Positions 2,515-29,234 of a stretch of DNA of 39,078 nucleotides are shown here, piece by piece; position 1 is the stretch's first letter, and each line of letters opens with the position of its first letter. The notes beneath the pieces were generated by a model that worked only from the letters and a program-made list of their open reading frames with translations, did no database searches and was not told the origin of the DNA. A program made the position numbers and the translations under genes. The DNA lies in sequence record SRR22947727_5188. One strand, given 5' to 3'.

Positions 2515-3870
2515 ATGGGCTGTAGTAGTTGTGCCACAGGCGCAGACGGACAACCCCGAGGCTGTAAGAGCAATGGCACTTGCGGTACGGATAGTTGTAA
2601 TAAATTAACGGTTTTTGATTGGCTTTCCAATATGAGTCTTCCTGCGGGTGAGGCGCCATTTGATTGTGTGGAAGTGCGGTTTAAAAACTCTAGAAAAGAA
2701 TATTTCAGAAATGCAGAAGGCTTTCCCCTTCAGATTGGTGATTTAGTGGCCAGTCAGGCGGCTTCTGGACACGACCTTGGGATGGTGACCCTGACAGGCT
2801 CACTCGTAAAGGTGCAGATGAAGAAGAAAAAGGTGTCTTTTACCGGTGACGACCTTCCTAAGATTTACAGAAAAGCCACCGAAAAAGACATTGCCATTTG
2901 GCAGCGCTGTAGGGACCGTGAAGAGGAGATTAAGAAGCGCTCTAGAGAGATTGCTATTTCGTTGAATTTACAGATGAAACTATCCGATGTAGAATTTCAG
3001 GGAGATGGTTCTAAGGCTACTTTTTACTACACGGCAGAAGATAGGGTAGACTTTAGACAGCTCATAAAAGACATGGCCAAGGCCTTTGGTATTCGCATTG
3101 AAATGCGTCAAATTGGTTACAGACAAGAAGCCCAGCGATTGGGCGGTATTGGTTCTTGTGGTCGAGAATTGTGTTGTTCTACCTGGCTTACAGATTTTAG
3201 GTCTGTGGGTACGGCTGCAGCAAGGTATCAGCAGTTGTCTTTAAACCCTCAAAAATTAGCGGGACAGTGTGGTAAATTGAAGTGCTGTCTCAATTTTGAA
3301 CTAGACGTCTATGTAGACGCCCTCAAAGACTTTCCATCTGCAGACACCAAGCTGTTTACAGAGAAAGGACTGGCTTTTTGTCAAAAAGTAGACATTTTTA
3401 AAGAAAAACTCTGGTTTACTTATCGCGATGAGCCCAACAATTGGCACACCCTTTCTAAGGATCAAGTAAACGAGATACTGGCCAAAAACAAGGCCAAAGA
3501 ACCGGTGCCTAGTTTGGAGGCTTATGCCATTGAAGAGGAACAGGTTGCTGCTGAGGTGGTTTTTGAAAATGTGGTGGGCCAAGACAGCCTCACCCGTTTT
3601 GACGTACCTAAAGGCAGACGCAATAAAAACAATAAGAATAGAAACAAGAATAAAGGACCTAGGGATAAAGCAGCAGTTCACGGGGGCGACAACAACAAGC
3701 CCAGACAAGCCAATAAACCCAGGTTGGTAGGGAAATCTTCACGAGACAATGCCCCAAAAAGCGACGCAAATGGGGCGCCACCCAATAAAAAAAGACCGCA
3801 GAGAAACAATAAAACCAAAGGCAATAACAAACCTAATAATGAGAACCAGCAAGACACTTCTAAGCAGTAG
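2515..3870 (+). CDS. ricT: PSP1-domain Fe-S protein RicT/YaaT-like, with a low-complexity N/K/R-rich tail
   Basis: FYYTAEDRVDFRQLIK, GGIGSCGRELCCS, KLAGQCGKLKCCLNFE. Confidence 0.9.
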   Translation: MGCSSCATGADGQPRGCKSNGTCGTDSCNKLTVFDWLSNMSLPAGEAPFDCVEVRFKNSRKEYFRNAEGFPLQIGDLVASQAASGHDLGMVTLTGSLVKVQMKKKKVSFTGDDLPKIYRKATEKDIAIWQRCRDREEEIKKRSREIAISLNLQMKLSDVEFQGDGSKATFYYTAEDRVDFRQLIKDMAKAFGIRIEMRQIGYRQEAQRLGGIGSCGRELCCSTWLTDFRSVGTAAARYQQLSLNPQKLAGQCGKLKCCLNFELDVYVDALKDFPSADTKLFTEKGLAFCQKVDIFKEKLWFTYRDEPNNWHTLSKDQVNEILAKNKAKEPVPSLEAYAIEEEQVAAEVVFENVVGQDSLTRFDVPKGRRNKNNKNRNKNKGPRDKAAVHGGDNNKPRQANKPRLVGKSSRDNAPKSDANGAPPNKKRPQRNNKTKGNNKPNNENQQDTSKQ

Positions 3871-4351
3871 TTTTTTGTGTGGGGTGGCCCTATGGTTGCT
3901 CCAATCTTGTAGTGGTGCCGGCACCCAATCTGATTTTCAGGAACTCCCTGAGGCGGGTTGGCCACTGAAGGCGCCTGTTCGTTTTAGCCTAAGTGTTAAA
4001 GACAGCTCGTCTGACCAATCCCTTTGGATTGCACTGAGGCACGACCAAGACTATCCATTTAGCAATATTTTTTTAATTACCACCCTGGGTCATCCAAACG
4101 GTTCGGTTATTACAGACACCCTTTCCTATGATTTGGCTGCTGCAGACGGGCAGTGGTTGGGTAGTGGAAACGGTATTATCACCCACCAATTGCCCTTTAA
4201 AAAAGGGGTGCGCTTTGACAGTGCTAAGCCCTATGAGCTTTCCATTTATCAGGCCGTTAGAAGCCTTGGTTCAGCAGAAGGCATGGCCATTTTGCCTGGA
4301 GTGCTGTCTGTAGGCTATGTGGTAGAAAAAGAAACCTCAAAATCTAATTAA
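3839..4351 (+). CDS. gldH: Gliding motility lipoprotein GldH
   Basis: Start taken at ATG 3839 (MRTSKTLL...LLQSC lipobox); YPFSNIFLI, DTLSY, GQWLGSG; ricT-gldH-PBP1A order. Confidence 0.88.
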   Translation: MRTSKTLLSSSFLCGVALWLLQSCSGAGTQSDFQELPEAGWPLKAPVRFSLSVKDSSSDQSLWIALRHDQDYPFSNIFLITTLGHPNGSVITDTLSYDLAAADGQWLGSGNGIITHQLPFKKGVRFDSAKPYELSIYQAVRSLGSAEGMAILPGVLSVGYVVEKETSKSN

Positions 4352-4356
4352 TCCCT

Positions 4357-6723
4357 GTGGCTAAAGCAAACACTCCTTCAAAAAACGCTAAAAAGCAAAC
4401 CATGCCCAAAGGCTTTAAAACCTATGCAAGGATTTTTTGGGCCCTATTTTTATTAGGTGTTACCGGCTTTTTTAGTCTTTTTTACCTCGCTTCTATAGGC
4501 GTCTTTGGAGACATGCCTACCTTTGATAGGTTGGAAAATCCCCAGACCAATCAGGCCACTCAAATCATCAGTTCAGACAATAAAGTATTGGGTACTTTTT
4601 ATTTAGAGGAGAACAGAAACCCAGTGGCTTTTGAGGAGCTTCCTGAAAACCTGGTGCAAGCCTTATTGGCTACCGAAGATGTTCGTTTTTACGACCATTC
4701 AGGCATTGACGCTATTGGTACACTAAGGGCGGTGGCTTATTTAGGCACTAGGGGAGGCGCGAGCACCATTACCCAACAACTCTCTAAACTGCTCTTTACC
4801 AAAAGAGCCTCTTCCAATACATTTGCCAGACTGCTCCAGAAAGTCAAAGAATGGGTCATTGCCACGCGATTGGAGCGCCAGTACACCAAGAACGAGATCA
4901 TGGCCATGTACCTCAATATTTACGATTTTGGAAACAATGCAGACGGGATTCGCTCTGCAGCCAATATTTATTTTGGCAAGGAACCTATTGAACTGGATCC
5001 TAAAGAGTCTGCTATGCTAGTGGGCATGCTTAAAAATTCCAGCCTCTACAATCCCATACCATCTAGAAATCCTGAGGGCACCAGAAACAGGAGAAATGCA
5101 GTCTTGGCCCAAATGGAGAAGTACGATTTTATAGATCCTGCTACCAAAGACTCTTTGCAAGCAAGGCCTTTGGACTTGAATTTTAGTCCTCAGACGCATA
5201 GAGACGGAAAAGCCACCTACTTTAGGATGTACCTTCAGGGCTTTTTAAAGCGCTGGATTGCAGAAAACCCCAAAGAAGACGGCAGCAAATACAATTTGTA
5301 TTTAGACGGCCTAAAGGTCTACACCACTATAGATTCTCGCATGCAGGCCAATGCAGAAAACGCAGTAAAGGGACATATGAAAAACCTTCAGACGGCCTTT
5401 TTTAAACAGAATACCAAAAAGAAAAATCCAACCACTCCTTTTAGAGATATTGAAACGGAACAGGAAGAGGCCATTATAGACCGCGCTATTAGAACTTCTG
5501 AACGCCGCAGACAAATGCGAGAGAAAGGCTTTACAGAGGCCCAGATTGCCGCCAGTTTTAAGGTGAAAAGATCCATGCAGGTGTTTGATTGGAATAGTCC
5601 CAACCAACAGAAGGACACCCTAATGACCCCGCTGGATTCTATCCGATATTACAAATCTTTTTTACGTGCCGCCATGATGTCTATGGAGCCGCAAACAGGC
5701 CATGTACGCGCTTGGGTAGGGGGGGTAAATTACCGCCACTTCCAGTACGACCATGTCATTCAAGGAACCAGGCAGGCAGGCTCTATCTTTAAACCTTTTG
5801 TTTATGCCACCGCTATAGACCAGCTCAGGCTGTCTCCTTGCGAAACCCTTCCAGACACCCAGTTCTGTATTGCCGCAGGCAAGCATGGAAATATGGAGCG
5901 CTGGTGTCCTAAAAACTCTGGAGGCACCTATACCGGGGAAATGCTCACTTACAAACGCGCACTGGCCAGGTCTGTAAACTCCGTGACCGCACAGGTCATA
6001 GACAAGGTAGGTCCCAATCCAGTGGTGCAATTGGTCAAAAACTTGGGGATTAAAAGCGACTTACTTCCCGTACCTTCTATAGCGCTGGGTACCGCAGACG
6101 TGAATGTCTATGAAATGGTGGGTGCCTACGGGACTTTTGCCAATAAAGGGGTGTATGTAAAACCTGTAATGGTTACAGCTATTACAGACAAGGCAGGCAC
6201 TTTGTTGTACGAATACGTTCCTGAAACCAAAGACGTCATGTCTCAAGATGTGGCCTATACGGTCACCAATTTATTAGAGGGGGTGACCAAAGACGGCTCT
6301 GGAATTAGACTCCGCACAGAAGGGGCAGAGGAATACCGCCCTGAATACAAAGAAATAGTGACCGGTTATCCTTGGGCTTTTAAAAACCCTATTGCTGGAA
6401 AAACAGGGACCACACAAAACCAGTCAGACGGTTGGTTTATGGGTATGGTGCCCAACCTGGTTTCTGTGGTTTGGGTAGGGGGAGAAGAACGCGCCACCCA
6501 TTTTGAAACCATAGCCTATGGACAAGGCGCCTCCATGGCCCTACCCATTTGGGCCAATTATATGCGCGACAACTATGCCATTCCTGAATTGGGCATTTCA
6601 ATGGAGGCTTTTGAACGACCAGAAAATCTAAGTATTGTGGTAGATTGCGAGCCTGTAGTCACAGAAGAAGGGGATCCTGGCATTGATTTGGCAGAAGACG
6701 ACCTAGAAGGACTGGATTTTTAA
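4357..6723 (+). CDS. mrcA: Class A penicillin-binding protein 1A (transglycosylase/transpeptidase)
   Basis: N-terminal TM helix; ATEDVRFYDH, GASTITQQL; SIFK, SVN, KTG motifs. Confidence 0.93.
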   Translation: MAKANTPSKNAKKQTMPKGFKTYARIFWALFLLGVTGFFSLFYLASIGVFGDMPTFDRLENPQTNQATQIISSDNKVLGTFYLEENRNPVAFEELPENLVQALLATEDVRFYDHSGIDAIGTLRAVAYLGTRGGASTITQQLSKLLFTKRASSNTFARLLQKVKEWVIATRLERQYTKNEIMAMYLNIYDFGNNADGIRSAANIYFGKEPIELDPKESAMLVGMLKNSSLYNPIPSRNPEGTRNRRNAVLAQMEKYDFIDPATKDSLQARPLDLNFSPQTHRDGKATYFRMYLQGFLKRWIAENPKEDGSKYNLYLDGLKVYTTIDSRMQANAENAVKGHMKNLQTAFFKQNTKKKNPTTPFRDIETEQEEAIIDRAIRTSERRRQMREKGFTEAQIAASFKVKRSMQVFDWNSPNQQKDTLMTPLDSIRYYKSFLRAAMMSMEPQTGHVRAWVGGVNYRHFQYDHVIQGTRQAGSIFKPFVYATAIDQLRLSPCETLPDTQFCIAAGKHGNMERWCPKNSGGTYTGEMLTYKRALARSVNSVTAQVIDKVGPNPVVQLVKNLGIKSDLLPVPSIALGTADVNVYEMVGAYGTFANKGVYVKPVMVTAITDKAGTLLYEYVPETKDVMSQDVAYTVTNLLEGVTKDGSGIRLRTEGAEEYRPEYKEIVTGYPWAFKNPIAGKTGTTQNQSDGWFMGMVPNLVSVVWVGGEERATHFETIAYGQGASMALPIWANYMRDNYAIPELGISMEAFERPENLSIVVDCEPVVTEEGDPGIDLAEDDLEGLDF

Positions 6724-6785
6724 ATAGCCCTTTCAGGCCTTCTCAGGCCGATGCTTTTTTCGTACCTTAACATAAACCATTTTTT

Positions 6786-7487
6786 ATGATTAATAAAGTA
6801 GTTCCTTCTGTACAAGCCGCTATAGAAGGGGTGCAAGACGGCCAAACATTTATGTTGGGTGGTTTTGGGCTCTGTGGGATTCCAGAAAACACCATTACTG
6901 CCTTAGTGGCCAGTGGCGTAAAAAACCTGACTTGTATTTCGAACAATGCTGGGGTAGCAGATTTTGGCATTGGCCTCATGCTTTTAAAGCATCAGGTAAA
7001 AACCATGGTTGCTTCTTATGTAGGGGAAAATGACGTCTTTGAGCAGCAAATGCTCTCTGGGGTTTTAGAAGTTATCCTGACACCTCAGGGCACATTGGCA
7101 GAAAAATGTCGGGCGGCCCAAGCGGGTATCCCCGCTTTTTATACGCCTGCAGGTTACGGTACAGAAGTAGCAGAGGGCAAGGAAACTAGGGAATTCAACG
7201 GCAAAATGCATCTCTTAGAAACGGCGTATAAAGCAGACTTTGCTTTTGTAAAGGCTTGGAAAGGAGATACCGCTGGAAATTTAATTTTCAAAGGGACTGC
7301 GAGAAACTTTAACGCCTGCATGGCTGGGGCCGCCACCATTACCGTGGCTGAGGTAGAAGAATTGGTCCCAGCAGGGCACTTAGACCCCAACCAAATTCAT
7401 ATTCCCGGCATTATGGTACAGCGCATTTTTCAGGGCACGAATTACGAAAAGAGAATAGAACAACGCACCACCATAACGAAGGTTTAA
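6786..7487 (+). CDS. scoA: 3-oxoacid CoA-transferase subunit A
   Basis: [27 protein letters not shown]. Confidence 0.92.
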
Positions 7488-7497
7488 ACAGCTCATT

Positions 7498-8154
7498 ATG
7501 CTAGACAAAAACGGTATTGCAAAACGCATTGCACAGGAAGTTCAAGACGGCTATTACGTAAATTTAGGGATAGGAATTCCCACTTTGGTGGCCAATTTTG
7601 TGCGGGAAGACATCTCGGTAGAATTTCAATCTGAAAACGGTGTATTGGGTATGGGTCCTTTCCCTTTCGAAGGCGCAGAAGACGCAGACCTGATCAATGC
7701 AGGAAAACAGACCATTACCACCCTTCCAGGGGCCGCTTTCTTTGATTCTGCCATGAGTTTTGGTATGATCCGCGCCAAACAGGTACACCTTACTATTTTA
7801 GGGGCTATGGAAGTGGCCCAAAACGGCGACATTGCCAACTGGAAAATCCCAGGGGTCATGGTTAAAGGTATGGGTGGCGCTATGGATCTTGTGGCTTCTG
7901 CAGACAATATTATTGTGGCCATGATGCACACCAACAAAAAAGGAGACTCCAAACTCCTCAAACGCTGCTCTCTACCGCTTACAGGCGTAGGCTGTGTAAA
8001 AAAAATAGTCACCAACCTAGCCGTGATAGAAGTGACCCCAGAAGGCTTTAAACTCCTCGAACGCGCTCCAGGGGTTTCTGTTGCAGACATTCAGGCCGCC
8101 ACCGAAGGACAGCTCATTATTCCAGCAGTGGTTCCTGAGATTGTGGTGTGGTAG
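7498..8154 (+). CDS. scoB: 3-oxoacid CoA-transferase subunit B
   Basis: NLGIGIP, QSENG (catalytic Glu), GMGGAMDL. Confidence 0.92.
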   Translation: MLDKNGIAKRIAQEVQDGYYVNLGIGIPTLVANFVREDISVEFQSENGVLGMGPFPFEGAEDADLINAGKQTITTLPGAAFFDSAMSFGMIRAKQVHLTILGAMEVAQNGDIANWKIPGVMVKGMGGAMDLVASADNIIVAMMHTNKKGDSKLLKRCSLPLTGVGCVKKIVTNLAVIEVTPEGFKLLERAPGVSVADIQAATEGQLIIPAVVPEIVVW

Positions 8155-12521: not shown

Positions 12522-13307
12522 TTAATCCCTTCCGAGGCAATAGGCAATGCCGCCGCTGAGGTGGTCCAAGAAAGTGGCTTCCTCAAAAGAAGCTTCTGTG
12601 TGGCCGCCGCCAGTGTAGAAAGCCCTGCCGCCAAGACTTTCATGGTACCAGGCAATGGGGTGGTTTGCACCATTGGTCCCACCACTATAAGAATCTTCTT
12701 CCAAGTTTATAAGCACCTTTATGTGTGGATTAATGTTTTTGTAATTGTACCATTCGTCTGCCCTGGTCCATGACAGCGGGAGATTTTTGGTTGCTGGGTG
12801 CTTGCTGTTTAAGACGCGCATCTGGGCAGTGAGCACATTGGGATCATTGGGGTGGCTCTCAAAATATGCCCCCACTAATTTTCCATAAAATGGCCATTCG
12901 TATTCTGTGTCTGCTGCAGCGTGAATGCCCATAAACGCACCGCCATTAGAGATGTAATTCTCAAAGGCTTTTTGCTGATTTTCATTGAGTACTTCAAGGG
13001 TAGTACTCAAGAATAATACCAATTGGTATTTTTTTAAATTGTCTGGATGAAAAGAAAAGGCATCTTCTGTTTGGGTCACTTCAAAACCGTCTTTTTCTCC
13101 GAGTGTTTTTAGGGCTTTTACGCCAGCTTCAATACTGCTGTGTCTCCAGCCTGTTGTTTTGGTAAAAACCATGATCTGCGCAGGGTCTAATGCGTTATTT
13201 TCTTGTGCAAACGCTCCAACGGAGCCAAGTAAAAAGCCTGTGAGAACTAAGGTTTTAAATAGCCAAAAAGGGTTCAGGCTTCGGGAATGAGTCATGGTGG
13301 TTTTCAT
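12522..13307 (-). CDS. Secreted ThuA-like domain protein
   Basis: Signal peptide ending AFA-Q; VFTKTTGWRHSSI, GIHAAADTEY, DEWYN, FYTGGGH; start codon uncertain. Confidence 0.85.
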   Translation of the reverse strand: MKTTMTHSRSLNPFWLFKTLVLTGFLLGSVGAFAQENNALDPAQIMVFTKTTGWRHSSIEAGVKALKTLGEKDGFEVTQTEDAFSFHPDNLKKYQLVLFLSTTLEVLNENQQKAFENYISNGGAFMGIHAAADTEYEWPFYGKLVGAYFESHPNDPNVLTAQMRVLNSKHPATKNLPLSWTRADEWYNYKNINPHIKVLINLEEDSYSGGTNGANHPIAWYHESLGGRAFYTGGGHTEASFEEATFLDHLSGGIAYCLGRD

Positions 13308-13333: not shown

Positions 13334-14230
13334 TTAAACCGCACTAGCTGCTGCTGCGGTGAGGTATTTTTTTGGTGTAGTGCCATATTTCTTTTTAAAG
13401 GCCGCTATATAGTGACTGGCCGTTGAGTAGCCTATTTTAAGTCCCACTTCATTCACATTATAGGCCCCTGAAACCAGTAATTTTCTGCCGTATTCCATCT
13501 TGTAGTCAAACAAGAAACTGTACACGGAGTCTCCGTAAACTTGTTTAAACCCTTCTTTGAGTTTTTTGAGACTCAGGCCAATTTCTTGAGACAGCTCCGT
13601 GAGGGTAGGAGGCTCCGCCATTCTAGCCACAACAATTTCTTTGGCCTTTCTAATGCGTTTTAAGTTGTCTTCATCTACTAAAAAGGGACATTGTGCGGTG
13701 TCTGCCTCTTCAGAAACATTAAAGTATAAAGCCATGAGCTCATAGACCTTGGCTTTTATATAGAGCTCCTTAATATTAGGATGCAAAGTATTGTGCATTA
13801 GCTGGCTAATCACTACCGCAATGGATGGAGACACCGCCTCCTGCGCATAGTATTTTTTGTCTTTGTTTTCGGTGCTTAAAAAAGGGATAATATGGGCCTC
13901 TTTAGAAAACAAGGTGTGGAATTTTCTCAGGGTCATGACCACAGAAAACATCCAAGCATTGGGCTGAAGCACCGCATTGAGCGGCAGGTCTTTTTGGGTG
14001 TTGTATAATAATAAAGACTGTTCTTCAGAAACAGGAAGGCTGTAAGCACCTTCATTAAAAAGAAAGTCTGCACTGCCCTTGAGGCAGAAATGAAACTGAA
14101 TGTAACTGCTGTCTATGGACTTAATGAGCTTTTGAGGTAAAGGACTGTTATTCTGTATTTTAAGTACATAAAAACCTTCTTCTAAATAAATTTCTTCGAA
14201 GGGACTCAGCGCGTTGTTTTTCTCTTCCAT
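13334..14230 (-). CDS. AraC-family transcriptional regulator divergent from hemA
   Basis: C-terminal double HTH (KLKEGFKQVYG...GYSTASHYIAAFKKKYGTTP); linker CPFL. Confidence 0.93.
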   Translation of the reverse strand: MEEKNNALSPFEEIYLEEGFYVLKIQNNSPLPQKLIKSIDSSYIQFHFCLKGSADFLFNEGAYSLPVSEEQSLLLYNTQKDLPLNAVLQPNAWMFSVVMTLRKFHTLFSKEAHIIPFLSTENKDKKYYAQEAVSPSIAVVISQLMHNTLHPNIKELYIKAKVYELMALYFNVSEEADTAQCPFLVDEDNLKRIRKAKEIVVARMAEPPTLTELSQEIGLSLKKLKEGFKQVYGDSVYSFLFDYKMEYGRKLLVSGAYNVNEVGLKIGYSTASHYIAAFKKKYGTTPKKYLTAAAASAV

Positions 14231-14250
14231 ATAGATTTTATGAAGCGTTA

Positions 14251-14277
14251 TTTTATTTAGAATTATTCTAAATAAAA
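14251..14277. promoter_or_regulatory. Perfect 13-1-13 palindrome, probable flavobacterial Fur box
   Basis: TTTTATTTAGAAT-T-ATTCTAAATAAAA between the AraC-gene promoter and its start codon. Confidence 0.8.
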
Positions 14278-14303
14278 AAGTAATACCCTAAGGCTTAGCC
14301 CAA

Positions 14304-14311
14304 CAAAAATA
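14304..14311 (-). promoter_or_regulatory. -7 promoter element for the AraC gene
   Basis: TATTTTTG on the minus strand. Confidence 0.6.
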
Positions 14312-14406
14312 AGAAACTGTGCGCATTTTAAATAAAAATGCATAGAAAATATTCTGTGGCGACACTTATAGTTCCTACAGCGTTATTTTTATCTTTATTG
14401 TGGGCT

Positions 14407-14414
14407 TACTTTTG
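14407..14414 (+). promoter_or_regulatory. -7 promoter element for the hem operon
   Basis: TACTTTTG, 35 nt before the hemA ATG at 14450. Confidence 0.7.
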
Positions 14415-14449
14415 TACTCCGTTTGAAAATCAAGAAGCTGGGCGAAAGC

Positions 14450-15709
14450 ATGAAGGACTACCACATTTCTAAACACCAATCTTTTTTTTGTGTAGGATTA
14501 AACTACCAGAAAGCAGACGCTGCTACAAGAGGCTTATTTAGCCTGCAGGACCAGCAAGTGGTTGAAATACTCGCTGCAGCCAAAGCAGAAGGTTTGGACG
14601 CACTCATGGTGGTAAGCACTTGTAACAGAACCGAACTATACGGTTTTGCCCAAGACCCACATACCCTCATAGCGCTATTGTGCGACACCACCCACGGCAG
14701 TATTGAAGCCTTTCAAGAGGTGGCCTATATTTACAAAAACAAAGAAGCCATTCACCACTTATTTTGCGTAGGTACTGGTTTAGACAGTCAGATATTGGGC
14801 GATTTTGAAATTATTGCTCAGATTAAAAAAGGCTTTACCAGCGCGAAAAAAGTAGGTCTTGCCAATCCATTTATGGAGCGTTTAACCAATGCGGTCATTC
14901 AGGCGAGCAAACGCATTAAAAACGAAACAGACATTTCTACAGGAGCCACTTCAGTTGCTTTTGCCTCTGTACAGTATATTTTAAAACAAGTAGCAGACGT
15001 TTCCAGCAAGAACATCTTGTTGTTTGGTACTGGGAAAATAGGCCGAAACACCTGTGAAAATTTGGTAAAACATACCAAAAACACCCATATAACGCTCATT
15101 AACAGAACCAAAGACACTGCAGAAAAAGTGGCAGGTAAATTTAACCTGCTCGTAAAAGACTACGGAGACCTGCCTTCTGAAATTCGCAAATCAGACATTT
15201 TAGTAGTGGCAACAGGTGCTCAGAAACCCACTGTTTCAAAGGCCCTGATACACCACAACAGACCCCTATTAATCTTAGATTTGTCCATTCCACAAAACGT
15301 AGATCCGGATGTGCAGGAACTGGAAAACGTCACCTTAGTACATTTGGATGAGCTGTCTCAAATTACAGACGGCACCTTAGAAAAAAGACGCGCACACATT
15401 CCTGCAGCTAAAGCCATAATAGCCCATATTGAAGGAGAGTTTAACGCCTGGTTAGAAACCCGTAAGTTTTCTCCGGTCATAAAAGCCCTCAAAAACAAAT
15501 TGCAGGTCATGCAGGCAGAAGAGTTGGATTTCATGCAAAAGAAAACCGCTTATTTTGACGCTGCTACTGCCCAGCAGCTCACGGATAGAATGATCCAAAA
15601 AATCACCAAACAATTTGCAGAACACCTCAAAGAGGTTCAAGACCAACCCGAAGAGAGTGTTGCCCTGATTGAAGCGGTGTTTCAATTAAAAGCCACCACC
15701 AATGGCTAA
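14450..15709 (+). CDS. hemA: Glutamyl-tRNA reductase
   Basis: STCNRTE, GLDSQILGDFEI, GTGKIG; ATG 14450 preferred over TTG 14423. Confidence 0.97.
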   Translation: MKDYHISKHQSFFCVGLNYQKADAATRGLFSLQDQQVVEILAAAKAEGLDALMVVSTCNRTELYGFAQDPHTLIALLCDTTHGSIEAFQEVAYIYKNKEAIHHLFCVGTGLDSQILGDFEIIAQIKKGFTSAKKVGLANPFMERLTNAVIQASKRIKNETDISTGATSVAFASVQYILKQVADVSSKNILLFGTGKIGRNTCENLVKHTKNTHITLINRTKDTAEKVAGKFNLLVKDYGDLPSEIRKSDILVVATGAQKPTVSKALIHHNRPLLILDLSIPQNVDPDVQELENVTLVHLDELSQITDGTLEKRRAHIPAAKAIIAHIEGEFNAWLETRKFSPVIKALKNKLQVMQAEELDFMQKKTAYFDAATAQQLTDRMIQKITKQFAEHLKEVQDQPEESVALIEAVFQLKATTNG

Positions 15710-16613
15710 GACCCTTCGCATAGGCACCAGAGATTCTGCCCTGGCTATGTGGCAGGCCAAGACGGTACAAAGTCAATTGGCCGCCCACGGAATAGCCAGC
15801 GAATTGGTGCCGGTAAAATCCTTAGGTGATTTAAAATTAGACCAGCCTTTGTACGAATTGGGTGTTACTGGTGTATTTACAAAAACCTTAGACCTAGCGC
15901 TATTGGCTGGGGAAATAGATTTGGCGGTGCACTCCTACAAAGATGTTCCCACGGTATTGGCTAAGGGACTTTTCACGGCTGCGGTATTAAAGCGGGCCTC
16001 CACGGCCGACGTCCTAGTGCACAAATCACCAGATTTCACCACCTCAGGACTTCAAATAGCCACCAGTAGTTTAAGACGCAAAGCCCAATGGCTCGCCAAA
16101 TATCCCGAACACCAATTGGTAGATATTAGGGGAAATGTACAAACCCGATTAGAAAAATTAGCGAACAATTCTTGGGGTGGTGCTATTTTTGCAGCAGCAG
16201 GATTGGCCCGACTAGACCTATTGCCTGAAAACGCTATGCGTTTGGATTGGATGGTCCCTGCGCCCGCGCAGGGCGCTATGGTGGTGGTGGCGCAAAGCGC
16301 TCACACCGTCCTTCTAGAAGAACTTTCTGTATTAAACGATTTCCAAACTGCCCTCTGCACCCAGATAGAACGCGAATTTTTAAACGAACTAGAAGGCGGT
16401 TGCACCGCGCCCATAGGCGCGCTGTGCACCACCACCCAAGACCAACTGCACTTTATTGGCGTACTACACAGTTTAGACGGCAAGCAGCATATAGAAACCA
16501 ACACCTTTGTGCCTTTGGACCAGGCCCCAGGATACGGCAGAAAAATGGCCCAAAAGATATTAAGCCAAGGCGGCAAAGCCCTCATGGCGGAGATAAAAAA
16601 AGCATTATCATAA
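15702..16613 (+). CDS. hemC: Hydroxymethylbilane synthase
   Basis: IGTRDSALA, VHSYKD, RGNVQTRL, EGGCTAP. Confidence 0.97.
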   Translation: MAKTLRIGTRDSALAMWQAKTVQSQLAAHGIASELVPVKSLGDLKLDQPLYELGVTGVFTKTLDLALLAGEIDLAVHSYKDVPTVLAKGLFTAAVLKRASTADVLVHKSPDFTTSGLQIATSSLRRKAQWLAKYPEHQLVDIRGNVQTRLEKLANNSWGGAIFAAAGLARLDLLPENAMRLDWMVPAPAQGAMVVVAQSAHTVLLEELSVLNDFQTALCTQIEREFLNELEGGCTAPIGALCTTTQDQLHFIGVLHSLDGKQHIETNTFVPLDQAPGYGRKMAQKILSQGGKALMAEIKKALS

Positions 16614-16623
16614 AAGAAAAACC

Positions 16624-17316
16624 ATGAGCACACCGACCATTCTCAGCACAAAAGCCTTGCAGCCCGCACAACGGTCTAGACTTTTAGCGGCTGGTTTTTC
16701 GGTACAGTCCTACAATGCTGTGGCGGCAGAAGCCCTTACTTTTGATATGCCAGCAGCCCCTTTTCAGGGCATATTTACCAGCCAAAACGCTGTAGCCGCT
16801 TTTTTGTCTCACGAACACCTCTCCACCGCACTCCCCATTTTAGAAGGGGTGTATTGTGTGGGAGAGCGCTCCGCTCAGAAACTCAGAAAAAAAGGGGTAT
16901 TGGTTCACGCAGTAGCAGACAGCGCAGCAGACTTAGAGAAAATCTTGTTTTCAGGGCGCTACGCTTTAGAGAGCAGCCCGCTTTACTATTTCTGTGGCAA
17001 CAGGCATTTGCCCACTTTACCCAACGCTTTTAAAGCAGCAAAGCGGCCTTTAAACATTCGTATTGTATATGAAACAAATGGGGTAGAAAAGGCTTTTGAC
17101 CGTCCTTTTGAAGCCCTATTCTTTTTCAGCCCCAGTGGTGTAGCGGCTTTTACTGAAAACAATAAAATTGGAGACGCCTTTGTAGTGGCCATTGGCCCTA
17201 CTACGGCTCAGGCCGTAGCGGCACACACCAAACAGTATGTAGTGGCCAAGAAGCCCAGTTTTGCCCATATGTTAAGTGCACTTCGGGCACATTATCCCAA
17301 AAAGGACAAGCGCTAA
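16624..17316 (+). CDS. hemD: Uroporphyrinogen-III synthase
   Basis: IFTSQNAV, VYET, FFSPSGV, AIGPTTA; position in the hem operon. Confidence 0.9.
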   Translation: MSTPTILSTKALQPAQRSRLLAAGFSVQSYNAVAAEALTFDMPAAPFQGIFTSQNAVAAFLSHEHLSTALPILEGVYCVGERSAQKLRKKGVLVHAVADSAADLEKILFSGRYALESSPLYYFCGNRHLPTLPNAFKAAKRPLNIRIVYETNGVEKAFDRPFEALFFFSPSGVAAFTENNKIGDAFVVAIGPTTAQAVAAHTKQYVVAKKPSFAHMLSALRAHYPKKDKR

Positions 17317-17336
17317 GCCCGAGCAGAGGCCTTTAA

Positions 17337-17364
17337 AAAATAGCAAAGAGAAAATAGCAAAGAG
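17337..17364 (+). repeat. 14-bp tandem duplication
   Basis: AAAATAGCAAAGAG x2 in the hemD-hemE spacer. Confidence 0.8.
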
Positions 17365-17448
17365 AACAGCAGCGGATACAGTAAAGAAAACAACCTAAAT
17401 AGGAAGCAACACAGAAATAGCGATATTAATTGCCATAAAATAGACCCC

Positions 17449-18480
17449 ATGATAAAGAATGACTTATTCTTAAAAGCCCTTAGAGGTGAAACCGTATCTA
17501 GACCACCGGTCTGGATGATGCGTCAGGCAGGAAGGTACCTTCCGGAGTTTATGGAACTCAAGGACAAGTATGATTTTTTTACCCGTTGTCAGACGCCAGA
17601 ATTGGCTTCGGAAATTACCGTACAACCCATTAGGCGTTACGGTATGGATGTGGCTATTTTATTTTCAGACATTCTAGTGATTCCACAGGCCATGAATATT
17701 GAGGTAGAAATGAAACCCAATTTTGGGCCGTATTTACCCCACCCTATTCGTGACCAAAAAGCAGTAGATCAGGTGATCGTTCCAGACATTCAAGAAACTT
17801 TGGGCTATGTGATGGAAGCCATTAAAATGACCAAAGAAAAGCTCAATGATGAGGTGCCACTCATCGGTTTTGCTGGATCTCCATGGACCATTCTATGTTA
17901 CTGCGTGCAGGGGCAAGGGAGCAAAAACTTTGACAAAGCCAAGGAGTTTTGTTTTACCCAGCCCATTGCGGCACATACTTTATTACAGAAAATTACGGAT
18001 ACGACTATAGCCTACTTAAAAGCCAAAGTGGCTGCAGGAGTGAATGCTGTTCAGGTGTTTGACTCTTGGGGTGGTATGTTGTCTCCTACCGATTATCAGG
18101 AATTTTCTTGGCAGTACATCCAACAAATTATAGACGCCTTAAAAGAAGACGCGCCGGTAATTGCCTTTGGAAAAGGTTGTTGGTTTGCCCTGAGAGAAAT
18201 GTCTCAATCTGGCGCTGCTGCCCTAGGGGTAGATTGGACCTGCTCTGCGCAAAACGCGAGATACTTATCTGGTGGTAAGATTACCCTTCAAGGAAATTTT
18301 GATCCTTCAAGACTCATGTCTCCGCCCAAGACCATCAAGAGAATGGTGCATGAAATGATAGACGCCTTTGGAAAAGACCGCTATATTGTGAACTTAGGTC
18401 ACGGTATATTGCCCAATATTCCTTTAGAAAATGCAGGGGCTTTTATAGAAGCTGTAAAAGAATACAAACCCAGAGATTAA
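17449..18480 (+). CDS. hemE: Uroporphyrinogen decarboxylase
   Basis: [24 protein letters not shown]. Confidence 0.98.
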
Positions 18481-18536
18481 AAGGGTTAAAGAGCCGCTTA
18501 AAATACGCTCTATTGCCCCTTTGAAGCACCAATAAC

Positions 18537-19442
18537 ATGAAAGAACAATTCACCACCTATATTAGAGACCTTCAAGACCGCATTTGTAAAGGCTTGGAAG
18601 ACATGGACGGTACCGCCCGTTTTCAGGAAGACCTGTGGGAGCGTCCAGAAGGGGGTGGCGGCCGGACTAGAGTGATTCAAGAGGGATCGGTGTTTGAAAA
18701 GGGCGGCGTGAATACGTCAGCCGTTCACGGCCCATTACCCAAGAGCATGCAGGCTTATTTTGGGGTAGGGGAATCTAATTTTTTTGCCTGTGGCCTGTCT
18801 TTAGTCATGCATCCTAAAAACCCCATGGTGCCTACGGTACACGCCAATTGGCGTTATTTTGAGCTCTATGATCTGGACGGAAATCGCATAGACGCCTGGT
18901 TTGGGGGTGGTCAGGACCTCACCCCTTACTATTTATTCGAGGAAGACGCGCAGCATTTTCACCAGACCTGTAAAACGGCTTGTGACGCTCACGATACCGA
19001 TTTTTATCCAAAATTCAAGGCCCGTTGTGATGACTATTTTTGGAACGAACACCGCCATGAAGCCAGGGGTATAGGGGGCTTGTTTTTTGACTATTGCAAA
19101 GCCACCCCTGAAAGAAGTTTGGAAGAATGGCACCAGTTTGTGGCCCAAGTAGGGGACTCTTTTTTAGACGCCTACCTGCCTATTGTAGCAAAGCGCAAAG
19201 AACTTCCTTACGGTCCTGCCCAAAGAGATTGGCAGGAAATTCGCCGTGGTCGCTATGTAGAATTTAATTTGGTGCACGACAAAGGCACCTTATTTGGCCT
19301 TAAAACCAATGGCCGTATAGAGAGTATATTAATGAGTTTGCCCCCACATGTTCAGTGGGTGTACGACCACCAACCTATAGAAGGCTCAGATGAAGCCGCT
19401 TTATTGGAAGTTTTAGCCACCCCCATAGAATGGGCCCAATAA
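18537..19442 (+). CDS. hemF: Oxygen-dependent coproporphyrinogen III oxidase
   Basis: FEKGGVN, WFGGGQDLTP, RRGRYVEFNL. Confidence 0.98.
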   Translation: MKEQFTTYIRDLQDRICKGLEDMDGTARFQEDLWERPEGGGGRTRVIQEGSVFEKGGVNTSAVHGPLPKSMQAYFGVGESNFFACGLSLVMHPKNPMVPTVHANWRYFELYDLDGNRIDAWFGGGQDLTPYYLFEEDAQHFHQTCKTACDAHDTDFYPKFKARCDDYFWNEHRHEARGIGGLFFDYCKATPERSLEEWHQFVAQVGDSFLDAYLPIVAKRKELPYGPAQRDWQEIRRGRYVEFNLVHDKGTLFGLKTNGRIESILMSLPPHVQWVYDHQPIEGSDEAALLEVLATPIEWAQ

Positions 19443-19459
19443 CCTAAAAAAAAGACCCT

Positions 19460-20434
19460 ATGTATCCATTGAGAAGAAACAGACGCCTGAGACAGTCACA
19501 TGCCATTCGCCATTTGGTGAGAGAGACCATCATAACGCCATCGGACTTTTTAGTCCCACTTTTTGTAGTAGAAGGAAAAGGGATCAAAGAAGCCATTCCA
19601 TCTATGCCCAATTACTACAGGTACTCTTTAGATTTATTGGCTAAGGAGGTCAAAGAATTGTGGCAAATGGGCCTTTGTGGGGTTTTGGTATTTGTAAAAG
19701 TGCCAGAGGCTTTAAAAGACAATGCAGGTACGGAGGCGTTAAATCCCAAAGGACTCATGCAGCGCGCTGTAAAAACCATTAAAGACGCCTGTCCAGATAT
19801 GCTGGTCATGACAGACGTGGCCTTAGACCCTTATTCTTCATATGGACATGACGGAATTGTGGAAGGTCAAAAAATCCTCAATGACGAGACCGTAGAAGTC
19901 TTGGCAGAAATGGCCTTATCCCATGCAGAAGCTGGCGCAGATTTTGTTGCCCCTTCAGATATGATGGACGGCCGCATTCTCACCATTAGAGAGGCATTAG
20001 AAGAGGCAGGTTACACAGACACAGGCATTATGAGTTACAGTGCCAAATACGCTTCTGCTTTCTATGGTCCTTTTAGAGACGCCTTAGATTCTGCTCCAGG
20101 ATTTGGCGACAAAACCAGCTACCAAATGGATCCAGCCAACCGTTTTGAGGCGGTAGAAGAAGCCCAGGCAGATGTAGACGAGGGCGCAGACATTATCATG
20201 GTAAAACCAGGTATTTGTTACCTAGACATTGTGCGTGAAATAAAGAACGAGATAGATGTGCCCATTGCCGTATATCAGGTTTCTGGAGAGTACGCCATGG
20301 TGAAAGCTGCTGCAGAAAAAGGCTGGTTGGACCACGACGCTGTGATGATGGAACAACTTTTGGCTATAAAACGTGCCGGTGCCAATATCATTGCCTCTTA
20401 CTTTGCCAAAGATGTGGTGAAGCTTATGGGGTAG
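19460..20434 (+). CDS. hemB: Porphobilinogen synthase
   Basis: DVALDPYSSYGHDG (Asp-type metal site), APSDMMDGR, FYGPFRDA, MVKP. Confidence 0.98.
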   Translation: MYPLRRNRRLRQSHAIRHLVRETIITPSDFLVPLFVVEGKGIKEAIPSMPNYYRYSLDLLAKEVKELWQMGLCGVLVFVKVPEALKDNAGTEALNPKGLMQRAVKTIKDACPDMLVMTDVALDPYSSYGHDGIVEGQKILNDETVEVLAEMALSHAEAGADFVAPSDMMDGRILTIREALEEAGYTDTGIMSYSAKYASAFYGPFRDALDSAPGFGDKTSYQMDPANRFEAVEEAQADVDEGADIIMVKPGICYLDIVREIKNEIDVPIAVYQVSGEYAMVKAAAEKGWLDHDAVMMEQLLAIKRAGANIIASYFAKDVVKLMG

Positions 20435-20490: not shown

Positions 20491-21412
20491 GTGAAATCAT
20501 TAGAAATAACTTTTTATAAAACATTTTTTTTAGCCTTGCTGGCCACAATATTTACGATTGAAGTCAGTGTTGCCCAATGGCAAACAAAAGTAGACAGCTT
20601 GGTCCAAGATGCCATAGCTCAAAAAGCCTTTCCGGGCGCATTCCTCCAAGCGTTTTTCATTACAATCTTATGAAAACAGGTACATTCACAGGAATTTTCC
20701 CCGTAAAATGTTTCGCAAGATCAATAGATCTCAAGTATCTCAAGAAAAGACCTACACCTACTCAGGCCTTGCTTTTTTAATCTTCCCCAGCCTGATTGAG
20801 CAACTTACAGGAACAGACTATCGCGGGTACTTGCGCAGCCATTTTTACGATCCATTGGGTGCAGACAATTTAGGGTATTTACCTACCCAAAGACTGCCTG
20901 GCAAAAGGGCGGTGCCTACGGAAAGAGATAGCCTCTTTAGAAAGACCCTCACCAAAGGCTATGTGCACGATGAAAATGCGTCATTATTTGGCGGGATTTC
21001 TGGTAATGCTGGCTTGTTCTCTAATGCTTCGGGGGTTTATAAAATGCTTCAAATGTGGTTGCAAGGCGGAAGTGTGGAGGGGCGAAAATACCTCTCTCCT
21101 GAAACCATTGCCGCTTTTACCGCCTTGCAATACCCAGAAAACAACAACAGACGTGGTTTAGGTTTTGACAAACCTTTATTGGGCAATGACAGTCTTCCCG
21201 CTTCAAAATCTTATCCGGCACCTTCAGTGAGTCCAGAAAGCTATGGGCATTCCGGATTTACGGGTACTTTTGTTTGGGTAGACCCCACCCATGAACTCAT
21301 CTATATTTTCTTATCCAATAGGGTGTATCCTTCCAGAGCCCGAAGGGGGATTTACACCACCAATATTAGAGAGACGGTTCAAGAAGCCATTTATAAAGGG
21401 CTGGGAATTTAA
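20491..21412 (+). pseudogene. Beta-lactamase-family serine hydrolase, internally deleted and frameshifted at about 20641
   Basis: Signal peptide + VDSLVQDAIAQKAFPGA joined out of frame to SSKRF...YSGLAF...VHDENA...GNAGLFS...GHSGFTGT; catalytic SxxK segment absent. Confidence 0.8.
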
Positions 21413-23326: not shown

Positions 23327-23647
23327 TTACAGCATGCCCAGCTCCAGCTTGGCTGCTTCACTCATAAGTTCTTGGGTCCATGGCGGGTCAAAGGTAATTT
23401 CTACTTCTGCGTCTTTTACCGCGTCTATAGATTTCACTTTCTCTTCCACTTCTACCGGAAGGGTTTCTGCCACAGGACAATTGGGCGAGGTAAGGGTCAT
23501 GAGGATCTTCACTTCGTTGTCTTCATTAACTAGTACGTCGTAAATGAGTCCCAGTTCGTATATATCTACAGGGATTTCCGGATCGTAGATGGTTTTAATG
23601 ACTCCTACAATTTGTTCCCCTAATGCCACATCTTTTGATTCTTCCAT
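23327..23647 (-). CDS. sufT: DUF59/SufT Fe-S maturation protein
   Basis: DPEIPVDIYELGL, TLTSPNCP, FDPPW. Confidence 0.9.
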   Translation of the reverse strand: MEESKDVALGEQIVGVIKTIYDPEIPVDIYELGLIYDVLVNEDNEVKILMTLTSPNCPVAETLPVEVEEKVKSIDAVKDAEVEITFDPPWTQELMSEAAKLELGML

Positions 23648-23659
23648 AGCTGCTATTTT

Positions 23660-24094
23660 TTAGGCGTCTTTTACCTGCGTTTGATACGCCACTGCGTATA
23701 ATTTTATTTGTTTGATCATGCTCACTAGGCCGTTGGCTCTCGTGGCAGATAAATGTTCTTTTAGGCCAATCTCATCTATAAAATCTGTGCTGGCGTCTAA
23801 AATGTCCATGGGTTTTTGATTGGAGAAGGCGCGTATGAGAATGGCAATAATACCTTTGGTAATAATGGCGTCTGAGTCTGCAGTAAACACCAATTTGTTG
23901 TCTTCTAGCGCCGCATGAACCCAAACTTTGGACTGACATCCTTTAATAATGTGGTCCTCGTTTTTAAATTCAGGGTCAATGAGCGGCAAGGACTTCCCTA
24001 AAGAGATCATATGCTCATAACGCTGCATCCAATCTTCAAAAAAGGCAAATTCTTCTACAATCTCGTCTTGAATGTCTTTGATAGGTGCTAACAT
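23660..24094 (-). CDS. sufE: Cysteine desulfurase activator SufE
   Basis: IKGCQSKVW, DSDAIITKG, LSATRANGL. Confidence 0.95.
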   Translation of the reverse strand: MLAPIKDIQDEIVEEFAFFEDWMQRYEHMISLGKSLPLIDPEFKNEDHIIKGCQSKVWVHAALEDNKLVFTADSDAIITKGIIAILIRAFSNQKPMDILDASTDFIDEIGLKEHLSATRANGLVSMIKQIKLYAVAYQTQVKDA

Positions 24095-25308
24095 AACATG
24101 TCTTTTGCTTTTTGAACCCCTGCTACCAGGCGGTCTATTTCTTCAAAGGTATTGTAAAAACTAAAACTAGCGCGAACCGTTCCCGGTATGCTGTAATAAT
24201 CCATAATAGGTTGGGCGCAGTGGTGTCCGGTTCTCACGGCTATACCCATCTGGTCTAAAATGCTTCCAATGTCGTAAGGGTGCAGCCCCTTGATGTTAAA
24301 AGAGACAACGGCCGTCTTTTCTGCAGCGGTCCCGTATATTTCTAGGCCTTCAATGCCCAGCAATGCTTTGGTGGCGTACACCAACAATTCTTGCTCGTAG
24401 GCAGCTATCTTGTCAAATCCAATGCTGTGCATATAATCTAGCGCAGCGCCAAAGGCAATTCCTCCAGAAATATTGGGGGTGCCTGCTTCAAATTTATGGG
24501 GCAGTCCGGCATAGGTGGTTTTTTTAAAACTCACTGTGGCAATCATTTCCCCACCACCTTGGTAAGGCGGTAATTTTTCTAGCCATTCTTCTTTTCCATA
24601 GAGCATGCCTACTCCGGTTGGGCCGCAAATTTTATGGGCAGAGACTACATAGAAATCTACGTCTAAGGCCTGAACGTCTGCTTGAATATGGGGGGCGGCT
24701 TGCGCGCCGTCTATTAAGACGGCCGCACCCACTGCGTGGGCCGCGCCAATGATTTCTTGAATAGGATTCACGGTGCCTAGTGCATTAGAGACATGGTTGC
24801 AAAACACCAATTTAGTGGCTGGAGAAATCATGGCGTGAAAAGCCGCCATGTCCAGCGTTCCATCTATTAACATAGGAATCACCTTGAGCACTGCACCTGT
24901 TTTTTCTGCCGCCATTTGCCAAGGCACAATGTTGGAGTGGTGTTCTAGTGCAGAGACCAATAGTTCATCGCCCGCTTTTAAAAGGGCTTCAAAACCGCTG
25001 GCCACAATATTAATACTGTGGGTGGCTCCCGCCGTGAGAATGACCTCATAGGCGTGGGCGGCATTAAAGTGTTTTTGCACCTTAATTCTGGCCTGCTCAT
25101 AAGCGTCTGTAGCTTCTTGAGACAGGCTGTGCACCCCACGGTGAATATTGGCATTGTAGTAACTGTAGTAATGGGTAATGGCCTCAATGACCGCCAAAGG
25201 CGTCTGTGACGTAGCGGCATTGTCCAAATATACCAAGTCCTGCCCATGTACTTTTCTAGAAAGAATGGGAAAGTCTTTTCTAATGGCTGCAACGTCTAAT
25301 GTAGGCAT
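24088..25308 (-). CDS. sufS: Cysteine desulfurase SufS
   Basis: YLDNAAT, SAHK, RTGHHCAQP; start taken at MPTLD (25308). Confidence 0.95.
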   Translation of the reverse strand: MPTLDVAAIRKDFPILSRKVHGQDLVYLDNAATSQTPLAVIEAITHYYSYYNANIHRGVHSLSQEATDAYEQARIKVQKHFNAAHAYEVILTAGATHSINIVASGFEALLKAGDELLVSALEHHSNIVPWQMAAEKTGAVLKVIPMLIDGTLDMAAFHAMISPATKLVFCNHVSNALGTVNPIQEIIGAAHAVGAAVLIDGAQAAPHIQADVQALDVDFYVVSAHKICGPTGVGMLYGKEEWLEKLPPYQGGGEMIATVSFKKTTYAGLPHKFEAGTPNISGGIAFGAALDYMHSIGFDKIAAYEQELLVYATKALLGIEGLEIYGTAAEKTAVVSFNIKGLHPYDIGSILDQMGIAVRTGHHCAQPIMDYYSIPGTVRASFSFYNTFEEIDRLVAGVQKAKDMLC

Positions 25309-25312
25309 GTTT

Positions 25313-26629: not shown

Positions 26630-27382
26630 CTATAGCGCTGTTTCTTGTTTGATCCAGTCGTAGCCTTTTTCTTCCAATTCAAGGGCCAAACTCGCGTCCC
26701 CAGATTTTACAATCTTTCCGTCGTACAACACATGTACAAAGTCAGGTACTATATAGTCTAACAAACGCTGGTAGTGGGTGATCACGACTACCGCATTGTC
26801 TTTTGAACGCAGTTTATTTACCCCAGCCGCTACAATTCTAAGGGCGTCAATATCCAATCCAGAATCTGTTTCGTCTAGTATGGCTACTTTGGGTTCCAAC
26901 ATGGCCATTTGGAAAATTTCGTTACGCTTCTTCTCTCCACCAGAAAAGCCTTCATTGAGGGATCTCGATAAGAATTTGCGGTCTATTTCTAACAATTCCG
27001 CCTTTTCCTTGATCATTTTAAGCATCTCATTGGCAGGCATGTCTTCCTGGCCTCTGGCTTTACGGGATTCATTAATGGCGGTTTTCATAAAGTTGGTTAC
27101 CGTCACGCCTGGAATTTCGATAGGGTATTGAAAAGACAAAAAGATTCCTTTGTGAGCGCGCTCTTCAGGAGCGTTATCGGCCAAATCTTGGCCATCTAAT
27201 AACACTTCTCCTTTGGTGACTTCAAATTCATCTTTACCTGCTACTACAGAAGCCAAAGTACTTTTACCAGCACCGTTAGGACCCATAATAGCATGGACTT
27301 CTCCAGGTTTTACCACAAGGTTAATGCCCTTTAATATCTCTTTATTGTCTACACTTGCGTGTAAGTTTTTAATCTCTAACAT
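26630..27382 (-). CDS. sufC: Fe-S assembly ATPase SufC
   Basis: GPNGAGKST, FSGGEKKR, DETDSGLDID. Confidence 0.97.
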   Translation of the reverse strand: MLEIKNLHASVDNKEILKGINLVVKPGEVHAIMGPNGAGKSTLASVVAGKDEFEVTKGEVLLDGQDLADNAPEERAHKGIFLSFQYPIEIPGVTVTNFMKTAINESRKARGQEDMPANEMLKMIKEKAELLEIDRKFLSRSLNEGFSGGEKKRNEIFQMAMLEPKVAILDETDSGLDIDALRIVAAGVNKLRSKDNAVVVITHYQRLLDYIVPDFVHVLYDGKIVKSGDASLALELEEKGYDWIKQETAL

Positions 27383-27413
27383 TTTTTTATTCTATAGGGT
27401 GACGGCGCAGTGT

Positions 27414-28859: not shown

Positions 28860-28881
28860 TTTCTTTTTTTTAGGGAGTTGG

Positions 28882-29215: not shown

Positions 29216-29234
29216 AAATAGATTAATTCTAAAT
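29216..29234. promoter_or_regulatory. Degenerate copy of the Fur-type box at the suf operon
   Basis: AAATAGATTAATTCTAAAT matches ATTTAGAATnATTCTAAAT at 15/18 positions; lies between promoter and ATG. Confidence 0.65.

Follow-up and report, generated by a model that had tools for sequence, protein, structure and literature searches.

What controls heme synthesis in the Bacteroidota, where production has to balance iron supply and the toxicity of free porphyrins? The question is raised by a locus in sequence record SRR22947727_5188, in which a gene for an AraC/XylS-family regulator lies back to back with an operon of tetrapyrrole (hem) genes. We analyzed a 39,078-nt stretch of this record, referred to in the following as the window, with the analysis centered on positions 13334–14450. 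A literature search yielded no description of how tetrapyrrole synthesis is controlled in the Bacteroidota. An original prediction, made from the DNA letters, had proposed a two-input circuit in which Fur sets the abundance of the AraC protein and heme or a porphyrin sets its activity at the hemA promoter. The reading that we prefer is that the protein is a dedicated, Bacteroidota-specific AraC/XylS regulator of tetrapyrrole (heme) synthesis, with a signal read through a Cys-Pro motif and a repressor acting on the leader of its gene. We put the probability of this whole chain at roughly 45%. Its first link, that this AraC protein regulates the hem operon, is well favored by the conservation described below.

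The regulator gene (13334–14230, minus strand, an open reading frame (ORF) call) encodes a protein of 298 amino acids (aa). On the plus strand, hemA, hemC, hemD, hemE, hemF and hemB, identified with Pfam and NCBIfam, occupy positions 14450–20434. Five of the six reach the NCBIfam equivalog cut-offs, hemD was assigned through Pfam HEM4, and hemF is of the oxygen-dependent type. The listed hemA ORF begins with a TTG at 14423; judging from the alignment of control regions described below, where the ATG column at 14450 is kept in 73 of 74 sequences, this ATG is the probable true start. From there, 219 bp separate hemA from the divergent araC gene. The predicted arrangement of an AraC gene divergent from hemACDEFB was thereby recovered, with all of the described elements at their places.

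The same arrangement was found in a genome scan that confirmed at least 580 loci, of which we analyzed the best 80. The regulators of these 80 all share 60–75% identity with the query, and those with names belong to the Flavobacteriaceae, so the sample is restricted to one family. Within it, the synteny of araC and hemA on which the original prediction was to be checked was complete: hemA is divergent from the regulator in 78/78 loci with upstream DNA (78 of the 80, as L023 and L044 lack it). In 74 loci the spacer does not exceed 400 bp, and hemC, hemD and hemE follow hemA nearly everywhere. Downstream of the regulator, on the same strand and often less than 300 bp away, 64/80 loci carry hemH, encoding ferrochelatase according to Pfam; no ferrochelatase gene is present within the window.

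Four Flavobacterium loci (L045, at 6598–7636 and 7729–7747, and, with the same layout, L053, L057 and L063) have a two-gene insert of ≈1.7 kb between araC and hemA. The inserted genes, which have no Pfam match, encode a 144-aa membrane protein and a 195-aa lipoprotein with an N-terminal region that looks globin-like by eye. Locus L044 (contig CALPLL020000090.1) is labeled as a Rhizobium sp. metagenome-assembled genome and has a flavobacterial-type AraC gene, 62% identical to the query, together with a hemH 82% identical to that of Flavobacterium. The label is probably a binning or labeling error.

Pfam matches to the regulator were restricted to AraC-type DNA-binding models, HTH_18 (E 2.7e-16) and HTH_AraC, with the DNA-binding domain at residues 213–290 (13361–13594, minus strand); no Pfam model matched the N-terminal domain. 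NCBIfam gave sub-threshold matches only, confined to the DNA-binding domain, the best being Btr with 48.9 bits against a cut-off of 900, and a profile search of the PDB matched 28 AraC-type DNA-binding domains and nothing else. An AlphaFold2 model built on alignment A1 had a mean predicted local distance difference test score (pLDDT) of 89.3 and a predicted template modeling (TM) score of 0.58. It consists of β-barrel strands at residues 12–100 (cupin-like), mostly with pLDDT >90, followed by helices and then by a seven-helix DNA-binding domain. The best full-length PDB matches in Foldseek were ToxT, Rns and CsvR (E 1e-12 to 1e-9, 12–16% identity). Isolated AraC-type DNA-binding domains matched with a TMt of 0.74–0.86, and the N-terminal domain also matched the AraC dimerization domain, BgaR and ExsA. 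The protein thus has the C-terminal DNA-binding domain with two helix-turn-helix (HTH) units and the N-terminal barrel domain of the AraC/XylS family, and from fold and family matches it is therefore an ordinary two-domain regulator of that family. Its 120 closest relatives in the database share 71–96% identity with it, and those with names belong to Zobellia, Arenibacter, Cellulophaga, Maribacter and related genera. Among 1.84 billion 50%-cluster representatives, 97 matched with E ≤ 1e-30 and 4,845 with E ≤ 1e-10.

Judging from the model, the sole unusual feature of the regulator is an invariant short motif in an otherwise variable, probably flexible linker. Residues 175–184, between two confidently predicted domains, are the only segment of the model with pLDDT <50, and they carry Cys181-Pro182-Phe183-Leu184 (13679–13690, minus strand; local sequence TAQ-C-P-F-L-VD in the translation). 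The Cys181 codon lies at 13688–13690 and the Pro182 codon at 13685–13687, just ahead of the HTH domain, as had been predicted. In alignment A1, C181 and P182 are at least 90% conserved and the adjoining linker residues vary; outside the DNA-binding domain, the near-invariant positions are M1, H105, K161, E164, C181 and P182.

The motif CP[FY]L is present in 80/80 orthologues (78 CPFL, 2 CPYL), and xQCPFLVx in 121/121 close homologues, query included. We also aligned the query with 104 full-length 50%-cluster representatives. Of these 105 sequences, 69 have Cys at column 181 and 71 have Pro at column 182; the only other cysteine of the regulator, C49, is present in 43. The dipeptide is found in 63/104 representatives, which is nearly the entire subfamily, down to ≈30% identity, and at the column in 60 (57 + 3) of the 67 with E ≤ 1e-30. 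Representatives without Cys-Pro at this position are mostly distant proteins of ≈330 aa. One distant member, P0145, is 34% identical to the query and has relatives labeled Bacteroidia, Cyclobacteriaceae and Bacteroidota; in these, Cys-Pro followed by two hydrophobic residues occurs in 118/118. The conservation of the dipeptide, which the original prediction had asked to see checked, therefore held throughout the orthologues, the close homologues and the relatives of P0145.

Cys-Pro heme-regulatory motifs are known from Irr, Hap1, Bach1 and ALAS. The regulator shares their features of a Cys-Pro followed by a hydrophobic residue, conservation among orthologues and location in a flexible segment. 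With its conserved back-to-back placement and its invariant Cys-Pro, the protein is so a good candidate for a heme-production switch in the Flavobacteriaceae.

A possible partner of the cysteine is His105 (codon 13916–13918, minus strand), which tends to co-occur with Cys181 across the subfamily: among the 104 representatives, 59 have both Cys-Pro and His105, 38 have neither, 4 have Cys-Pro only and 3 have His only. The apparent coupling (Fisher p 3e-20) is confounded by subfamily structure, and a tree-aware test was not significant. We therefore set it aside as a result and keep it as a hint.

The control region was footprinted with 74 aligned sequences, namely the window and 73 loci with spacers of 180–250 bp. 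Five conserved elements emerged in the 219 bp: a −7 promoter box for each of the two genes, a 33-bp block, a T-run and, in the araC leader, a palindrome. The araC −7 box (TATTTTTG; consensus TAnTTTTG) is at 14304–14311 on the minus strand and is kept in 57–72 of the 74 sequences; the hemA −7 box (TACTTTTG) is at 14407–14414 on the plus strand and is invariant in 73. A conserved G with a T-run lies between the two promoters at 14346–14353, the window having A where 72/74 have G. The 33-bp block (14360–14392) has the plus-strand consensus CGAYAYWWAWAGTWCYTnnAGCGTTAYTTTTAT, in which AGCGTTA is almost invariant, and the AACGC core is within 140 bp of the hemA start in 72/78 loci.

Transcription start sites have been mapped for the corresponding genes of Flavobacterium psychrophilum (PMC9723704). 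The hemA start lies 23 nt upstream of the ATG, with the same −7 box and a promoter containing AGCGTTAC; the divergent "AraC family" gene THC0290_0052 is transcribed from a site 88 nt ahead of its ATG, preceded by TATTTTTG. This 5′-end mapping confirms, by analogy, both promoters of the window. Relative to the hemA start so placed, the 33-bp block would span approximately −27 to −59, over the −33 region, and approximately −61 to −93 of the araC start. AraC-family activators usually sit at such positions, and a repressor could act there too. From its conservation and position, the block is likely the AraC operator of the hemA promoter.

Two other repeats were considered as regulator sites and rejected. 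The exact 11-nt direct repeat AGCGTTATTTT, at 14244–14254 and 14379–14389, has its hemA-side copy inside the conserved block, and the palindrome-side copy is specific to the window, which speaks against paired AraC sites. An inverted repeat, GCATTTT-N5-AAAATGC, near 14321–14341 was not conserved in the footprint either.

Published expression values for F. psychrophilum (log2 fold changes in the supplementary data of PMC9723704, with THC0290_0052 as the regulator) bear on how such a system might be controlled. With 25 µM dipyridyl, hemA changed by +0.18 (adjusted P 0.27) and the regulator by −0.13 (adjusted P 0.36); hmuY (+2.65) and THC0290_1815 (+2.77) were induced. In fish plasma, hemA fell by 2.1 (adjusted P 5.6e-4) and the regulator by 0.04, and the hemA signal was also lower on blood (10.5/10.6 vs. 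≈11.7). Both genes rose in oxygen limitation (hemA +1.47, regulator +1.91) and in stationary phase (+1.21 and +1.48), and the regulator rose slightly, by 0.57, with peroxide. Taken at face value, these data show transcriptional regulation of the hem operon, with neither gene moved by iron chelation alone. The four-fold fall of hemA in plasma while the regulator mRNA stays flat implies control of the regulator's activity. They are better matched by a ligand acting on what the regulator does at the hemA promoter than by Fur setting regulator abundance.

The fifth conserved element is a perfect palindrome at 14251–14277, with 13-nt arms (14251–14263 and 14265–14277) around a single base, 25 bp upstream of the araC ATG. 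The arms are 100% complementary, and the core (14255–14273, ATTTAGAATTATTCTAAAT) is identical at 19/19 positions to a predicted Fur box of Riemerella anatipestifer RA-YM, so that the label "Fur-type" in the original prediction fits even better than could be told from the letters. Its placement in the leader is backed by homology, the araC −7 box at 14304–14311 corresponding to the mapped start in F. psychrophilum; by this analogy, the palindrome would lie at approximately +26 to +45 of the araC transcript. RA-YM Fur shifted promoter fragments carrying such boxes in electrophoretic mobility shift assays (PMC5609570). At R. anatipestifer rhuH, a Fur box lies 25 bp from the start codon, the same spacing as at araC, and deletion of the box derepressed the gene (PMC11967795).

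The 17-nt pattern of the palindrome has one exact match in the window and three with up to 3 mismatches, against a shuffle mean of 0.55; 2/100 shuffles reached three matches. Of the 80 loci, 79 could be assessed for TTTAGA-N5-TCTAAA (≤1 mismatch); 72 have it 22–26 bp ahead of the start, 69 of them as an exact match. L044, without upstream DNA, is excluded from this count, and the seven misses are the four insert loci plus L061, L075 and L076. In the insert loci, palindrome copies occur beside hemA and upstream of the inserted genes: the inserted genes have their own upstream copy, and the old copy beside hemA survives in two loci and has decayed in the other two. No exact copy was found outside the araC–hemA control regions in 1.23 Mb of loci plus the window, where 12 one-mismatch matches look like chance. 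As hemH often lies directly downstream of the regulator, the leader palindrome may also govern hemH in those loci. A known RNA element was considered for the leader and rejected: no Rfam family came near its gathering score in the region, and the hairpin that the leader can form is weak (−11.6 kcal/mol, z −1.8).

Another Fur-box-like site, TTTAGAATTAATCTATT, lies at 29217–29233 of the window, with 3 mismatches to the consensus, flanked by a TATATTTG −7 box on one side and the probable sufA start on the other. It heads a complete suf operon on the minus strand (23327–29211), comprising sufA-like, sufB, sufC, sufD, sufS and sufE genes and one for an FeS-assembly protein. The probable sufA start is an ATG at 29211; the listed ORF starts with a GTG at 29241 and would contain the site. 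By its sequence and position, the site would fit an iron regulon; on its own it is not significant. In F. psychrophilum, the promoter of the dipyridyl-induced THC0290_1815 carries the Fur-box-related TTCTAAATAAA (PMC9723704).

Taken together, we propose the following mechanism. The regulator would bind the 33-bp block, probably as a dimer, and control hemA from a class-II-type position, and possibly its own promoter too. Its activity would be set post-translationally via the Cys-Pro-Phe-Leu in the disordered linker, perhaps with His105. Heme would be the most economical signal, giving end-product feedback in the manner of a heme-regulatory motif. The identification of heme as the signal read through Cys-Pro, with a porphyrin or the thiol redox state as alternatives, is tentative and based on motif conservation. 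The leader palindrome would be the operator of a dimeric repressor, and Fur, if it is that repressor, would add an iron input. We lean to activation as the direction of regulation, given where the block lies and that both mRNAs rise together. A more ambitious version would make the protein, an AraC/XylS regulator from a phylum with no known regulator of heme synthesis, the first of a new class of bacterial heme sensors, with heme on the linker Cys-Pro and His105 as second ligand, the sensor and DNA-binding domains uncoupled by binding, feedback on hemA throughout the Bacteroidota and iron input through a Fur operator in the leader; this version we consider unlikely.

Several observations weigh against the mechanism. 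The synteny sample consists of orthologues at least 60% identical from one family. A lone Cys-Pro dipeptide is common: there are 7 in the 12,280 aa of the 36 ORFs of the window, or 0.17 expected per 298 aa, and the non-random part is its conservation. Cys181 and His105 each change 6 times on the tree, leaving 3 independent pairs on supported branches. Relative to the inferred transcription start, the palindrome is on the downstream side, where a Fur site would be unusual. Of 72 loci, 2 retain the AT-N-AT in the middle of the Fur box, and 41 distinct central pentamers occur. Finally, the F. psychrophilum orthologue and its hemA do not respond to dipyridyl, the araC leader of that species not having been read for the palindrome.

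These points bear most on the iron input. A 19-bp repeat near the start codon is present, as in a Fur regulon, and conservation of the whole box in orthologous leaders is not. Of the claim that Fur sets regulator abundance, the match of the core to a Fur box stood; the claim itself is at best unproven, because the inner bases are free and the F. psychrophilum orthologue is unresponsive to dipyridyl. The palindrome might instead be read by another dimeric repressor recognizing TTTAGA-N5-TCTAAA, or act at the RNA level, the match to a Fur box in the window then arising by coincidence from A/T-rich spacer bases and the iron gate being absent. We regard this as possible, a little short of an even chance: only the outer hexamers are conserved, the F. 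psychrophilum gene stayed flat under conditions that induced hmuY and THC0290_1815, the site would lie within the transcript, and a leader hairpin can form. On the other side, the outer bases are shared with R. anatipestifer Fur boxes that are backed by mobility shifts and a box deletion, and F. psychrophilum is described as having a single Fur-family protein (PMC9331221). An action at the RNA level is also countered by the lack of any Rfam family matching the region and by the arms, both strictly conserved without compensatory changes, which points to a protein–DNA site rather than an RNA stem. We retain the palindrome as the operator of a dimeric repressor, with Fur as the best candidate and adding an iron input, at about even odds.

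The protein might also regulate the hem operon in response to something other than heme bound at Cys-Pro. The N-terminal domain shares its ligand-binding barrel fold with ToxT, Rns, AraC and BgaR and could hold a porphyrin intermediate or another metabolite in its pocket; alternatively, Cys181 could sense redox state or oxygen, the protein being inactivated in air when the thiol is oxidized. The rise of araC and hemA in F. psychrophilum in oxygen limitation and stationary phase, and of araC with peroxide, would suit a signal of another kind, and the F. psychrophilum paper ties the induction of heme synthesis to the demand for cbb3 oxidase in hypoxia (PMC9723704). Taken together, these alternatives are nevertheless less likely than not. 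The chain has one well-conserved cysteine, C49 being present in fewer than half of the aligned sequences, and hemA drops in heme-rich plasma and blood without a change in regulator mRNA. Heme-regulatory motifs, as in Irr, Hap1 and Bach1, typically consist of such an invariant Cys-Pro followed by an aromatic and an aliphatic residue within a disordered linker, which is not the usual setting of a disulfide switch.

That the protein instead regulates siderophore or iron-uptake genes, as PchR, YbtA and Btr do, and neighbors hemA by position only, is very improbable. The idea draws on the known type of Fur-repressed AraC regulators of siderophore genes, on the Btr match confined to the DNA-binding domain and far below its cut-off, and on a few close homologues automatically named "AraC family transcriptional activator of pyochelin receptor" or "regulatory protein PchR". 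It is opposed by the neighbors, hemA in every assessable locus and hemH in most, and by the conserved operator block, which sits on the hemA promoter. No siderophore, TonB-receptor or other iron-uptake gene was found beside the regulator among the window ORFs with Pfam and NCBIfam, and no siderophore or TonB-receptor gene in the hem-side neighborhoods. The distant ≈330-aa representatives, moreover, lack Cys-Pro at this column.

Weighing these readings, we conclude that the observation is real and the protein a conserved, probably new regulator of the hem genes, for which we consider heme sensing plausible and gating by Fur uncertain. The literature search, with most subscription journals outside its reach, turned up neither an AraC-type regulator of hem genes nor an AraC protein carrying a heme-regulatory motif. 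This agrees with the original prediction, which knew of no such characterized regulator, and does not prove that none has been described.

Some features of the window lie outside this system. Downstream of araC, the place of hemH is taken by a ThuA-like gene (12522–13307), 27 bp past the araC stop, and sdhCAB. After hemB and a 273-bp gap, a beta-lactamase-family ORF (20708–21412, 234 aa) matches only positions 140–319 of a 329-position profile and may be N-terminally truncated or wrongly started. A PSP1-domain ORF (2515–3870) and a GldH lipoprotein ORF (3749–4351) overlap by ≈120 bp as listed, and one of the two starts is probably wrong.

The Bacteroidota include major degraders of marine polysaccharides as well as fish and bird pathogens that switch between heme synthesis and heme uptake. 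With a dedicated regulator, a mapped candidate operator and a single candidate sensing residue, the question of hem control in this group would become directly testable. If heme binds the linker motif, heme-regulatory motifs would be extended to the largest family of bacterial ligand-responsive activators.

As proposed, the system would combine known kinds: an AraC/XylS regulator, a Cys-Pro-motif sensor and a Fur-gated AraC cascade. In Bacillus, PerR acts on hemAXCDBL. In B. thuringiensis, Fur acts on hemH1 and hemH2 (PMC11988928). These share with our locus, as proposed, a Fur-family operator at heme-synthesis genes, but they act directly on hem promoters, whereas the palindrome described here is in the leader of a regulator gene, ≈150 bp from the hemA promoter.

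PchR, YbtA, AlcR and Btr are Fur-repressed, ligand-activated AraC regulators of iron uptake, with a ferric siderophore as the ligand. They resemble the system proposed here in having a Fur-type operator on the regulator gene, a small-molecule input and a neighboring divergent operon. Their targets, however, are siderophore genes, whereas here the neighbor is hemA in 78/78 assessable loci, and we found no linkage to siderophore synthesis or receptor genes of the kind that marks PchR and YbtA.

ToxT, Rns and CsvR combine an N-terminal barrel with a C-terminal dual HTH, as does our regulator, and their barrel binds a hydrophobic ligand (fatty acids). They are virulence regulators, 12–16% identical to it, with TM-scores of ≈0.35, low because the two domains are oriented differently to each other. 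They are not known to carry a Cys-Pro linker motif.

Irr, of Bradyrhizobium and other α-proteobacteria, is a Fur-family protein with a Cys-Pro motif that is destroyed on heme binding. In both systems, heme and iron status would be coupled to the expression of heme-synthesis genes and a Cys-Pro motif is present. The difference is that Irr belongs to the Fur family, whereas the regulator described here is an AraC/XylS protein of the Bacteroidota that carries Cys-Pro in the linker between its domains and would bind heme there. If the more ambitious version of the mechanism is correct, an AraC sensor together with a Fur operator would fill an Irr-like role in the Bacteroidota.

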